Origin: a virus
Lineage: Duplodnaviria; Heunggongvirae; Uroviricota; Caudoviricetes
DNA: 19,860 bases
Strand: one strand, 5' to 3'
IMG/VR virus record: IMGVR_UViG_2778261687_000001
Coordinates: 1 to 19,860 of that record
Shown here: positions 12,217-14,638 of the stretch, piece after piece
Layout of the letters: every line of letters starts with the position of its first letter
Position numbering within the stretch: the stretch's first letter is position 1
Notes under the pieces: model-generated
Databases searched by the model: none
Told to the model about the DNA's origin: nothing
Seen by the model: only the letters and a program-made list of their open reading frames with translations
Translations under genes and position numbers: made by a program

Positions 12217-12356
12217 TCCCCAAAAAAATGGCATAGACATTAAACGTGATGATGATTGTGCCAATACTTTCTCCATCAATGACGCCCCTTGACTGCATGG
12301 AATCCAATTTGTTATGTAATATGTGTTGATATTTTTGAGTTGTTAATGGTGTTACT

Positions 12357-13070
12357 ATGGATGACAGTGCTCTGCTCAGAAACTCTTCACTTTTTGTTGC
12401 TTATATGGGCTGTCTAGGATGGGGAAGCGCTTATTTCTATGGATGGGGTACTTCATTTTACTATGGCTTTCCATGGTGGGTTGTCGGGGCTGGTGTCGAT
12501 GATGTAGCACGAAGTTTGTTTTATGCTGTGACAGTTATCGTTATATTCCTTATTGGATGGGGAGTTGGTATTATTTTCTTTTTGGGCATAAAACAAAAGC
12601 GCAATATACAAAATTTGAGTTTTATCCGGCTTTTTCTCGCGATATTGCTGCTTTTTATTCCACCTGTTCTGGAGTTTTCGGTAATTCATCAGCATGTTGA
12701 GCCAGATGTACTGATTTTCTGCATTCTTGCTGCCTTTACAATCACGCTTTTTGTCAGGTCTGGAAGAAGACTTGTTTCAGTCAAATGTTTTTCGGAAATG
12801 TCTTTTATTCGCCATCACCGAATTGAGTTCATGATGGCTGGGTTTATGATTTATTTCTGGGCATTCTCTCTCATTGCCGGTTGGTACAAACCACAGTTTA
12901 AGAGGGAATATCAGGCGATCCACTATGAGAATGTATGGTATTACATTATTGCGCGTTATGATGATCGTCTGGTGTTATCGAAATCATACAGGAGTGGGGG
13001 TAAGAAATTCGTTATATTTAATAGCGGAAATATTAATGATTTTGAAATTAATACAGTCAGAGTGCGTTAA
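12357..13070 (+). CDS. AT-rich multi-pass membrane protein (moron), 237 aa, unknown function
   Basis: Track ORF with about five hydrophobic helices and a 60-aa C-terminal soluble tail; codon usage much more AT-rich than neighbouring genes; TTGACT -35 at 12289-12294 upstream. Confidence 0.6.
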   Translation: MDDSALLRNSSLFVAYMGCLGWGSAYFYGWGTSFYYGFPWWVVGAGVDDVARSLFYAVTVIVIFLIGWGVGIIFFLGIKQKRNIQNLSFIRLFLAILLLFIPPVLEFSVIHQHVEPDVLIFCILAAFTITLFVRSGRRLVSVKCFSEMSFIRHHRIEFMMAGFMIYFWAFSLIAGWYKPQFKREYQAIHYENVWYYIIARYDDRLVLSKSYRSGGKKFVIFNSGNINDFEINTVRVR

Positions 13071-13243
13071 AATTTCTTGAGTAACAAAGATTTTTACCGC
13101 CCGCCATTGAGAGGTTTTTTATGCCAGAAAAATGGTTCGGTACATAAAATGTGCAGGTGGTTATTAATACCGGTCTTTCAGCTTGCTGGCTTTTTCGACA
13201 AGAGTTATTGGTATGTCACGTTAACCAAAAAAGAGAAAAAGAC

Positions 13244-13441
13244 ATGCTAAAACAGCAGGATATGACCGAAACAGCCAGAGTGGTGTTTAATGAATTAAGC
13301 GTCACTGAACCGGCAACAGTTGGGGAAATTGCGCAGAATACTTACCTTTCACGCGAACGCTGCCAGTTAATACTGACCCAGCTTGTTATGGCGGGTCTGG
13401 CAGATTATCAGTTCGGTTGTTACAGACGCCTTCCGCAGTGA
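13244..13441 (+). CDS. Small HTH/winged-helix-like protein, 65 aa
   Basis: Internal ATG of track ORF 13151..13441; helix-turn-helix-like segment ATVGEIAQNTYLSRERCQLILTQL; weak Shine-Dalgarno. Confidence 0.45.
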   Translation: MLKQQDMTETARVVFNELSVTEPATVGEIAQNTYLSRERCQLILTQLVMAGLADYQFGCYRRLPQ

Positions 13442-13591
13442 AGGCTTTTTACTTTGTGGTAATGGGCGGCTGGTGGGTGTTAGCGGCACCTGCCAGCCAT
13501 CTGCTCATGAATCGGGGTCACAAGCAAACCTCAGGCCCATCCGCTTTGCGCAAAAGCGGTATGAGCCTATCAGAGAAGTGCTTATTGATCT

Positions 13592-14638
13592 ATGGTTGAT
13601 ACTGTAAAAATATTCAGTTGTGAGTTAATCAACACCGATTGCCTGGAATTTATCCAGACCTTATCGGAAAACTCTGTCGATCTTATAGTCACAGACCCGC
13701 CATATTTTAAAGTGAAGCCCGAGGGCTGGGATAACCAGTGGAAGGGCGACGATGATTACCTGAAATGGCTGGACCAGTGTCTGGCTCAGTTCTGGCGGGT
13801 ACTGAAGCCTGCCGGAAGTCTTTACCTGTTTTGTGGTCATCGCCTGGCATCTGATATCGAAATCATGATGCGTGAGCGCTTTAATGTGCTGAACCACATT
13901 ATCTGGGCGAAGCCGTCCGGACGCTGGAACGGGTGCAACAAAGAAAGCCTGCGGGCGTATTTCCCGGCAACAGAGCGCATTCTGTTTGCCGAACATTATC
14001 AGGGGCCATACCAGCCAAAAAATGATGGCTATGCGGCAAAGGAGCGCGAGCTTAAACAACACGTCATGGCCCCGCTGATTTCTTACTTCCGTGATGCGCG
14101 TGAATCACTGGGGATAACGTCCAAACAGATAGCGGAAGCCACCGGAAAGAAAAACATGGTGTCGCACTGGTTTGGTACCTGTCAGTGGCAGTTACCGAAC
14201 GAAGCTGATTACAGAAAACTGCAGGCGCTGTTCGCGTGTGTTGCAGAAGAAAAGCACCAGCGTGGGGAGCTGGCAACGCCACACCAGCAACTGGTCAGCA
14301 CATACAGTGAACTGAACCGGCAATATGCCAGTCTGCTTGAGGAATACAAATCTCTGCGGCGTTATTTTTCTGTATCGGCCGCCGTTCCTTATACGGACGT
14401 CTGGACGCATAAGCCCGTGCAGTATTATCCGGGTAAGCATCCCTGCGAAAAACCGGCGGATATGTTGCGTCAGATAATTTCTGCCAGCAGTCGTCCAGGC
14501 GATTTGGTCGCAGATTTTTTTATGGGGTCGGGGTCGACAATAAAAGCGGCACTGTCGCTGGGACGCAGGGCGATTGGCGTGGAACTGGAAGAGGAACGTT
14601 TTAATCAGACGGTCAGAGAAATAACGAAAGATTTTTAA
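13592..14638 (+). CDS. Orphan DNA methyltransferase (DPPY motif; likely N6-adenine, beta-class motif order)
   Basis: Motif IV DPPY near the N-terminus (VTDPPYF) and motif I-like FFMGSGST near the C-terminus; no adjacent restriction endonuclease candidate. Confidence 0.8.
   Translation: MVDTVKIFSCELINTDCLEFIQTLSENSVDLIVTDPPYFKVKPEGWDNQWKGDDDYLKWLDQCLAQFWRVLKPAGSLYLFCGHRLASDIEIMMRERFNVLNHIIWAKPSGRWNGCNKESLRAYFPATERILFAEHYQGPYQPKNDGYAAKERELKQHVMAPLISYFRDARESLGITSKQIAEATGKKNMVSHWFGTCQWQLPNEADYRKLQALFACVAEEKHQRGELATPHQQLVSTYSELNRQYASLLEEYKSLRRYFSVSAAVPYTDVWTHKPVQYYPGKHPCEKPADMLRQIISASSRPGDLVADFFMGSGSTIKAALSLGRRAIGVELEEERFNQTVREITKDF

Follow-up and report, generated by a model that had tools for sequence, protein, structure and literature searches.

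The stretch of DNA analysed here (the window: 19,860 nucleotides, positions 1 to 19,860 of IMG/VR virus record IMGVR_UViG_2778261687_000001) is a lambdoid prophage of Escherichia coli. Between its late antiterminator gene Q and its lysis genes lie three open reading frames (ORFs), encoding a membrane protein, a small stand-alone winged-helix protein (wH) and a DNA methyltransferase. The methyltransferase is a new member of a known and characterised family, that of M.EcoGII, and the worthwhile result is the RNA that precedes it: a leader of 144 nucleotides for which two covarying folds are found. The three genes do not form one system. The explanation of the whole that we consider best, and probably correct, is an independent membrane passenger next to a late module with a leader-gated M.EcoGII-type methyltransferase.

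The spacer between the wH and methyltransferase genes, of about 150 nucleotides, is as conserved as coding DNA; it is nevertheless non-coding, since stops and single-nucleotide indels occur in it across species. In the window, the leader has a minimum free energy (MFE) of -64.3 kcal/mol (z=-4.65). When 30 non-redundant spacers, drawn from about 15 genera, are folded one at a time, the MFE structure has the same architecture in most cases; we call it the closed fold. Segment 1 (AUGGGC) pairs with segment 2 (GCUCAU) below a P2 hairpin of 12-13 base pairs with a nearly invariant apex (GUGUU..GCAC), and segment 3 (GGUCA.AAGCR) pairs with segment 4 (YGCUU..UGAUCU), enclosing the central hairpin P5/P4. 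Segment 4 is 13 nucleotides long and ends one base 5′ of the methyltransferase AUG; no Shine-Dalgarno sequence is present at the usual distance 5′ of this AUG. As G-U pairs are frequent, the structure can be assigned to the + strand.

The closed fold was scored on two alignments. On a structure-blind MAFFT alignment of the 30 non-redundant spacers, 87.7% of cells are paired, compared with 29-47% in slid controls, with 14 double-change pairs and a covariation score that was exceeded by 0 of 500 shuffles. In an alignment of 41 distinct sequences fitted with Infernal, 89.8% of cells are paired, compared with 32-48% in slid controls; there are 19 double-change pairs, and all five measures gave 0/500. 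The pairing between segments 3 and 4 accounts for 6 double-change pairs, with 89.6% of its cells paired. Compensatory changes include GGCUGGUGGGUG/CACCNGCCAGCC becoming GACUGUAAAAGUG/CACCUUUACAGUC in Proteus and GACCGAUGAGUG/CACACAUCGGUC in Xenorhabdus. RNAalifold, applied to a 23-sequence alignment, recovered the structure only in part. A hairpin AUCAG..CUGAU just 5′ of the AUG was considered and dropped in favour of the long-range pairing of segments 3 and 4, which the per-sequence MFE folds recovered.

Segment 3 also takes part in a second, open fold. Here segment 2 pairs with segment 3 (UUCGCUCAUG/CACAAGCGAA) and UGGGC pairs with GCCCA, which together with P2 creates a three-way junction and, we infer, frees the methyltransferase start region. 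Over the 13 open-fold pairs, 92% of cells are paired (27-46% when slid), five pairs show double changes, and four of five measures gave 0/500, all computed on the alignment fitted to the closed fold. The pairing of segments 2 and 3 alone has 87.1% of cells paired and 4 double-change pairs. Column 81 lies in segment 3 and shows covariation in either pairing: CG:15, UA:14 and AU:3 with its partner in segment 2, GC:13 and AU:9 with its partner in segment 4. Two mutually exclusive helix sets that share segment 3 are both conserved, as expected of an attenuator. The four-segment logic, with 1:2 and 3:4 set against 2:3, is indeed that of attenuators, but helix 3:4 of the leader is not a terminator and instead covers the start region for translation of the methyltransferase. 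The choice of fold may accordingly switch methyltransferase translation. The junction fold is the MFE structure, or within about 1 kcal/mol of it, in sequences from Buttiauxella, Erwinia and Xenorhabdus, and in many species the two folds lie within a few kcal/mol of each other; these forced-pair energies are of qualitative use only, as they underestimate the closed fold where alignment columns are out of register.

The leader is tightly linked to the methyltransferase gene. Its covariance model, R1, scores 129 bits in the window and matches 46 of the 56 loci examined, with nothing else in 458 kb. A 27-nucleotide pattern from the leader 5′ end retrieved at least 80 loci from a metagenome collection, where matches number more than 120; 78 of 80 among the matches listed carry the leader, a few of them truncated or internally deleted, and the model has no other match in 705 kb. 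Both strands were searched, over a total of 1.16 Mb. The model always ends at the methyltransferase ATG, in the 46 of 56 loci as in the 78 of 80 among the matches listed. All 72 leaders with downstream sequence have an M.EcoGII-like ORF starting at the last 3 nucleotides of the model; leaders lacking such an ORF are at contig ends or are deletion remnants. The wH gene lies 5′ of the leader in about 85% of distinct contexts, the others having a different ORF or none, and its stop codon is 1-26 nucleotides 5′ of segment 1, typically 19-20 in the E. coli type and 7-9 in Morganellaceae. The strict link is therefore between leader and methyltransferase, with wH as a frequent companion.

Individual loci show how the element can vary. 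In L203, L191, L200, L149 and L134, other small or mid-sized ORFs replace the wH gene while leader and methyltransferase are unchanged; the replacements in L203 and L191 are related acidic proteins of 116-117 residues. L015 (2026-2129) lacks 41 nucleotides of the leader (segments 2-3 and GCCCA), a loss that seems to have occurred between short repeats, CTGCT/CCGCT. Only about 68 nucleotides of the leader are left in L145 (25-92) and L155 (11117-11184). L100 (4167-4302) retains the leader, with TAG immediately after the ATG, and has lost the methyltransferase gene.

A leader RNA with two covarying folds of this kind could not be found described. Rfam 15 has nothing at E<=1 in 11000-16200, and its best match to 13400-13620 is to an unrelated family on the opposite strand (15.7 bits, E=0.61). 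A search of a survey of 224 motifs brought up nothing relevant on a methyltransferase or a prophage (PMC5737381). Two ORFs that overlap the leader were rejected as coding sequences: one of 46 codons from ATG 13462 (within a 60-residue ORF at 13417-13599), which in most species stops after 7 codons, and one of 74 residues in another frame (13383-13607), given that spacer indels are not multiples of three. No conserved leader peptide was found, as ORFs from the segment 1 AUG end after 7, 18, 33 or 46 codons depending on species.

The gene that the leader precedes encodes a beta-class N6-adenine DNA methyltransferase. PF01555 spans residues 29-340, and the motif order is that of the beta class, with DPPY at the N-terminal end (TDPPY at 34-38), a central target-recognition domain and FxGxG at the C-terminal end (FFMGSGST near 310). 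Over its full length the protein shares 292 of 345 residues (85%) with M.EcoGII, with 2 gaps and 617 bits; the reference sequence was machine-read from the supplement of PMC11551740 and may hold a few reading errors. M.EcoGII and M.EcoGI come from prophages of E. coli O104:H4 C227-11, and the likeness to the window enzyme (~85% identity) extends to motif order, prophage setting and length (348 residues in the window, 349 in M.EcoGII), with about 15% of residues differing from M.EcoGII. PADLOC assigns the protein to MTase_II (PDLC03265, E=2.5e-153), and only methyltransferase models match it. Its likeness to the nearest solved structures is confined to the catalytic halves.

M.EcoGII acts on DNA adenines whatever their context and also methylates adenine in RNA. 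The enzyme is prophage-borne and silent in the lysogen, and its constitutive expression yields slow-growing, unstable clones (PMC5778455). In the portions of that study available to us, phage 1720a-02 is named as carrier of a 'very similar' enzyme, and M.EcoGII is treated alone, with no mention found of a wH gene or a leader (PMC5778455). Phage 1720a-02 has the same wH-leader-methyltransferase arrangement as the window. By orthology, the window enzyme would methylate adenines with little or no sequence specificity. The gene is not part of a type II restriction-modification (R-M) system: its neighbours are the wH gene, the tRNA-Gly gene and the holin genes, and no nuclease domain is encoded in 12100-15400. 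The enzyme is therefore an orphan, as a preliminary description of this DNA had proposed, and the option of a self-protecting methylase raised there holds by orthology to M.EcoGII.

These features suggest how the module might work. It comprises a conserved 5′ box, the 65-residue wH protein, the 144-nucleotide leader and the M.EcoGII-type methyltransferase, placed in the hypervariable slot behind pR′/tR′. Gene order suggests that the methyltransferase would be transcribed only when Q-modified RNA polymerase passes tR′ and, in E. coli, also the hairpin behind the wH gene. Adenine methylation would then let progeny DNA escape adenine-sensitive restriction, if the function follows orthology. Because unregulated expression of the enzyme is harmful, translation would additionally be gated by the leader, an extra lock through which stray transcripts in the lysogen would give no enzyme. 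The 3:4 helix of the closed fold would hide the start region, and the open fold, with 2:3 and UGGGC/GCCCA formed, would free it. Some event of late infection would shift the leader to the open fold, leaving the gene silent until late lytic growth. The candidate trigger that we prefer is RNase III cleavage of the long hairpin made by segments 1:2 and P2, as in the lambda N leader; others, in descending order of preference, would be binding of the wH protein at the conserved P2 apex, a ribosome terminating at an upstream ORF, or a small ligand such as S-adenosylmethionine (SAM) or S-adenosylhomocysteine (SAH).

Leaders that sequester a start site and so gate a downstream gene are familiar: the ermC leader is a translational attenuator, and the lambda N leader has an RNase III site. 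The likeness lies in a 3:4 helix that occludes a downstream translation start and, in a phage context, in a harmful or dose-sensitive protein that is gated after transcription. The window leader differs in having no conserved leader peptide, stalling motif or sequestered Shine-Dalgarno sequence, and in its extra long hairpin with a conserved apex and possible three-way junction; it has no sequence or Rfam relationship to either. That the leader represents a new riboregulator class, a true two-state switch run by wH, RNase III or SAM/SAH that licenses the methylase only in late lytic growth, is a possibility we put forward tentatively.

The alternative that survives best, although we think it unlikely, is a structured leader that is no two-state gate. 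It would be a static, stabilising 5′ untranslated region, a processing site for RNase III or RNase E, or a small RNA in its own right derived from the late transcript, and the second fold would be a coincidence. Coincidence sits poorly with alternative helices that are 92% paired, with compensatory changes, in an alignment made to fit the other fold, or with an open junction that is MFE or near-MFE in three genera. A static leader would fit the window itself, where the closed fold dominates by about 14 kcal/mol, and the 18-19 base pairs of segment 1:2 and P2 resemble RNase III substrates. The near-invariant P2 apex is as expected for a protein or tertiary contact site, and upstream ORFs of 7 to 46 codons from a conserved AUG speak for no conserved peptide. 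That the element, among the matches listed, always ends exactly at the methyltransferase AUG fits control in cis.

Several points weigh against a leader-gated methyltransferase and the module built around it. With the closed fold favoured by some 14 kcal/mol, spontaneous switching is unlikely in the window. The evidence on the leader consists of sequence comparison and folding, and its sequences come from a handful of clades, so that few independent events lie behind the compensatory changes; with related sequences, shuffle tests make significance look greater than it is, and helix 1:2 and UGGGC/GCCCA are almost invariant and show little covariation. Leader and methyltransferase occur without a wH gene in about 15% of contexts, and L124 has wH and methyltransferase genes with a different spacer of 94 nucleotides, so the three parts are not strictly interdependent. 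The non-specific activity of the window enzyme is predicted from orthology at 85% identity, and the membrane protein has no assigned function.

The wH gene has its conserved start at ATG 13244, as in RefSeq, and not at GTG 13151. The modelled protein is a winged helix, the fold of the ArsR, MarR and TrmB repressors; in Pfam it has only a weak match to TrmB (E=0.007). The methyltransferase gene follows at a fixed distance in 79 of 80 viral loci and in 22 of 26 cross-species loci (Kluyvera, Klebsiella, Erwinia, Proteus, Providencia, Mangrovibacter and Mixta), the exceptions being truncated or rearranged. In Xenorhabdus, Arsenophonus and Morganella the two genes again stand behind Q, of three Pfam families, and ahead of the holins. 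A crude count of synonymous and non-synonymous changes in the wH gene gave no useful signal, since it included divergent variants. In its position the protein recalls the controller (C) proteins of R-M systems, which are also small DNA-binding proteins encoded just 5′ of a modification gene with critical timing. C proteins, however, have an Xre-type helix-turn-helix (PF01381) and about 80 residues, act on C-boxes and mainly control the nuclease gene; the window protein is a 65-residue winged helix with no match to PF01381/HTH_3 and no nuclease gene, and some 15% of leader-methyltransferase units do without it. A role as a sensor of N6-methyladenine (m6A), by analogy with the DpnI-like winged-helix m6A sensors in the literature, would be speculation.

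Two signals flank the wH gene. The box at its 5′ side is kept from E. coli to Proteus, Xenorhabdus and Arsenophonus, and it follows tR′ directly where there is no insert. It resembles TTGCTG-17-TAYNTG, a -35 hexamer with a weak -10, and could be a promoter or a protein-binding site. The stem of the terminator-like hairpin at the wH stop covaries (GCCUCC/GGAGGC, GCUGCC/GGCAGU) and is absent in Morganellaceae; alone it is weak (-9.5 kcal/mol, z=-1.2).

It is improbable that the methyltransferase is a sequence-specific orphan serving lysogen epigenetics in the manner of Dam or CcrM, with wH as an ordinary repressor acting on this box. Beta-class orphans do include regulators such as CcrM (weak matches here), and both the repressor-type fold and the conserved promoter-like box would suit such a role. 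The box, on the other hand, has a -10 without the conserved final T, and every locus examined has the methyltransferase gene in the late operon, downstream of tR′. M.EcoGII, with which the enzyme shares 85% identity, was shown to be non-sequence-specific and silent in the lysogen, and ancestors reconstructed across the clade, when made and assayed, were of the same, largely non-sequence-specific kind (PMC11551740).

The preliminary description had grouped all three genes as one moron cassette outside the conserved late module. A megablast search with 12100-14700 against 5426 complete E. coli genomes gave matches in 2350 (~43%), and the shared part is the wH and methyltransferase genes. Most of the query, with all three genes, occurs in only 160 of the 2350, and the membrane gene is found in 451 genomes. 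As the membrane gene and the wH-methyltransferase pair each occur without the other, the pair doing so in most loci, they are not one cassette; the parts assort independently. In nucleotide sequence the shared module is conserved from about 13170-13190 onwards, and the step in GC content falls at the same point. The pair is itself a very widespread late module, not an addition to one: it spans about 15 genera of Enterobacterales and is carried by Shiga toxin (Stx) phages, phiP27 among them, always after antiterminator Q.

What lies between Q and the module is variable. In phage 1720a-02 nothing does, and wH, leader and methyltransferase are followed by stx2; in phiP27 a GIY-YIG gene replaces the membrane gene 5′ of the pair, and stx2e lies just downstream, in line with the earlier comparison to the slot in which Stx phages carry stx. 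Among 66 IMG/VR loci, the gene directly 5′ of the module is Q in 32, from four families (DUF1133/Q-like, PF06323, PF06530 and PF03589). The others have at least 10 unrelated inserts, including the membrane protein described here (8 loci), a PP2C-like protein (8), GIY-YIG (3), an Rce1/CPBP-like membrane protein (3), ORF6N (2), lipoproteins and an insertion sequence element. Passengers in the same slot in L027, L015 and L042 are a PP2C-like phosphatase, an Rce1/CPBP-type membrane protease-like protein and a 177-residue protein with no Pfam match.

That the three genes act as one defence, superinfection-exclusion or abortive-infection system, with the membrane protein as an effector controlled by the wH protein and the methyltransferase, is very improbable: adjacency on one strand, a slot known for morons and two proteins with no function assigned in searches speak for it, but 160 genomes combine all three where 2350 have the pair and 451 the membrane gene, the latter stands alone after Q or in the chromosome of Salmonella and Citrobacter, at least 10 unrelated genes take its position, GC content and sequence conservation break at about 13170, and PADLOC gives the membrane protein no match and wH a negligible one to SWIM_XIII (E=0.0058). 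Other parts of the preliminary description fared better. Its location of three + strand ORFs between Q/pR′/tR′ and the lysis genes is confirmed, with corrected starts, as are the low GC content of the first gene against its neighbours and its separate acquisition; its option of unrelated passengers holds for the membrane gene, which is unrelated to the other two. Its remark that the genes fit no named system stands for the membrane protein as regards defence models, but the methyltransferase, one of the three proteins, does fall in a well-characterised family.

The membrane ORF starts at ATG 12357, coordinate 12289 being that of the TTGACT hexamer only. For the promoter that had been ascribed to this gene, the -35-like hexamer is conserved (in the E. 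coli relatives L006, L007 and L047, with a similar TTGATT in Citrobacter), but the best -10 at a spacing of 17 nucleotides is a poor TTATGT and a consensus scan did not list the site; a promoter of its own is plausible. The protein matches PHROG 1521 (E=1e-85, 'unknown function') and is named 'STM1630 family protein' in RefSeq. All 104 homologues found (39-99% identity) carry the precomputed label PF27470 ('TfpB'), which places it in that family, and the local Pfam copy predates PF27470 and so gives no direct match. In the literature the short name 'TfpB' was found only in type IV pilus and chemistry uses. A profile search of 1.8 billion cluster representatives gave only 75 matches; some 15-20 are distant relatives of full length, and none was informative. 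On the sequences found, the STM1630-type family is narrow and enterobacterial.

The most conserved stretch of the protein is aromatic and glycine-rich and lies near the N-terminus (GWGSAYFYGWGxSFYYGFPWW). An AlphaFold model of mediocre confidence (pLDDT, predicted local distance difference test, 65) comprises five long helices and, at the C-terminus, a domain of about 55 residues with five strands. Foldseek against the PDB returned nothing significant (best MscS, E=0.06, TM 0.17), with the C-terminal strands leading to Sm/SH3-like folds. There is no match in Pfam, NCBIfam or PADLOC, where 0 families of the PADLOC 2.0 defence models are hit; superinfection exclusion would be a guess to which PADLOC lends no support.

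In L006 and L007 the membrane gene follows Q and is succeeded by tRNA and lysis genes, with no wH or methyltransferase gene. Intact homologues are also found in chromosomes: that of Salmonella (STM1630) is a neighbour of sseJ, and that of Citrobacter rodentium is a neighbour of lpxR. STM1630 belongs to the same family as the window protein (cluster P0070, 48% identical, 238 residues, labelled PF27470), but it is fixed in the chromosome and has a mapped promoter of its own, whereas the window copy sits in a prophage late operon. It encodes an inner-membrane protein and was picked from RNA-seq and macrophage-induction data; its deletion caused no drop in intracellular replication, unlike that of STM2475 (PMC6785131). 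Decayed copies of the membrane gene occur on the enterotoxigenic E. coli plasmid pU90-4 (L005, 3996-4708), about 870 bp from the heat-labile enterotoxin genes eltAB, and in an island of uropathogenic E. coli 536 (L004, 4001-4635), adjoining a tRNA-Arg gene near iroBC. Both look like remnants of a lambdoid Q-to-lysis slot beside virulence genes.

The features of the window are collected in the table below. In the early region, YdaS-like and YdaT-like genes (3842-4661) fill the cro and cII positions, as in the Rac prophage. GC content is 0.38-0.40 over 12001-13400 and 0.49-0.53 on either flank. The pR′ RNA (12145-12222) folds into two hairpins (-22.4 kcal/mol, z=-3.99), and the tR′ hairpin is kept in relatives; the transcript from pR′ to tR′ (12145-12219) may be a stable RNA of small size, comparable to the 6S/StxS RNAs of other lambdoid phages. 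Three stacked terminator-like hairpins lie at 15214-15380, just 5′ of the first holin gene, one of them with a weak, sub-threshold resemblance to suhB/mmgR (23 bits, E=0.17). Just 3′ of the endolysin gene, a cysteine-rich ORF of 85 residues (..CYWCCRDCHTS; 16649-16906) has no Pfam match.

Table. Features of the window, in order of position.
Feature	Position	Strand	Basis or remark
HTH_3 repressor gene, immunity region	3363-3770	-	
Genes for DnaC-like loader, DUF968, RusA, then antiterminator Q			order 5′ of Q
Late antiterminator Q gene	11431-12102	+	PF06323 Phage_antiter_Q, E=2e-90
pR′-like late promoter, TTGCAA-17-TATATT	12110-12138	+	consensus scan, 9/12 matches; directly 3′ of Q stop
tR′-like intrinsic terminator, AAACCCG..CGGGUUU + U7	~12189-12219	+	ends short pR′ RNA
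TTGACT, possible -35 for membrane gene	12289-12294	+	candidate
Membrane protein gene	12357-13070	+	237 residues; STM1630/PF27470 family; independent passenger (moron)
Box CTTGCTG-N10-(C)AGAGTTAYNTGTRTGTCA (also written CTTGCTG-N10-CAGAGTTAYNTGTRTGT)	13182-13219	+	left end of wH module
Small stand-alone winged-helix protein (wH) gene	13244-13441	+	65 residues
Terminator-like hairpin, GCCUUC-CGCAGU-GAAGGC + UUUUU	13428-13450	+	terminator scan; overlaps wH stop
Structured leader RNA of methyltransferase gene	13451-13594	+	144 nucleotides; fold, covariation, covariance model R1
Leader segment 1, AUGGGC	13462-13467	+	
Leader P2 hairpin	13468-13498	+	
Leader segment 2, GCUCAU	13503-13508	+	
Leader segment 3, GGGUCA.AAGCA	13515-13526	+	
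Leader central hairpin P5/P4	~13530-13572	+	
Leader segment 4, UGCUU..UGAUCU	13579-13591	+	abuts methyltransferase AUG 13592
Beta-class N6-adenine DNA methyltransferase gene, M.EcoGII orthologue	13592-14638	+	348 residues; PF01555, E=4e-45
tRNA-Gly (UCC) gene	14856-14928	+	ARAGORN; Rfam tRNA 51.6 bits; tRNA position typical of slot
Two holin genes and GH108 endolysin gene	from 15406		3′ of slot

For annotation and for searches of defence systems, the three genes should not score as one cassette, and the membrane gene is one of many interchangeable passengers, from a family (STM1630) that is kept in the Salmonella chromosome. M.EcoGII is a widely used laboratory tool, for chromatin footprinting and for writing m6A on RNA and DNA, and its natural biology is almost unstudied beyond its silence in the lysogen and its harm when freely expressed. 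A conserved wH gene and a start-occluding leader, which Stx phages share with some 43% of the complete E. coli genomes, offer a testable account of this silence, and the leader suggests how a phage could safely deploy a methylase that ignores sequence. The leader is also a candidate RNA family, one that covaries well, occurs in very well-studied genomes and is absent from Rfam. If it is indeed a switch, the combination of wH, leader and methyltransferase would be a dedicated safety device in thousands of enterobacterial prophages, including those of Stx phages.

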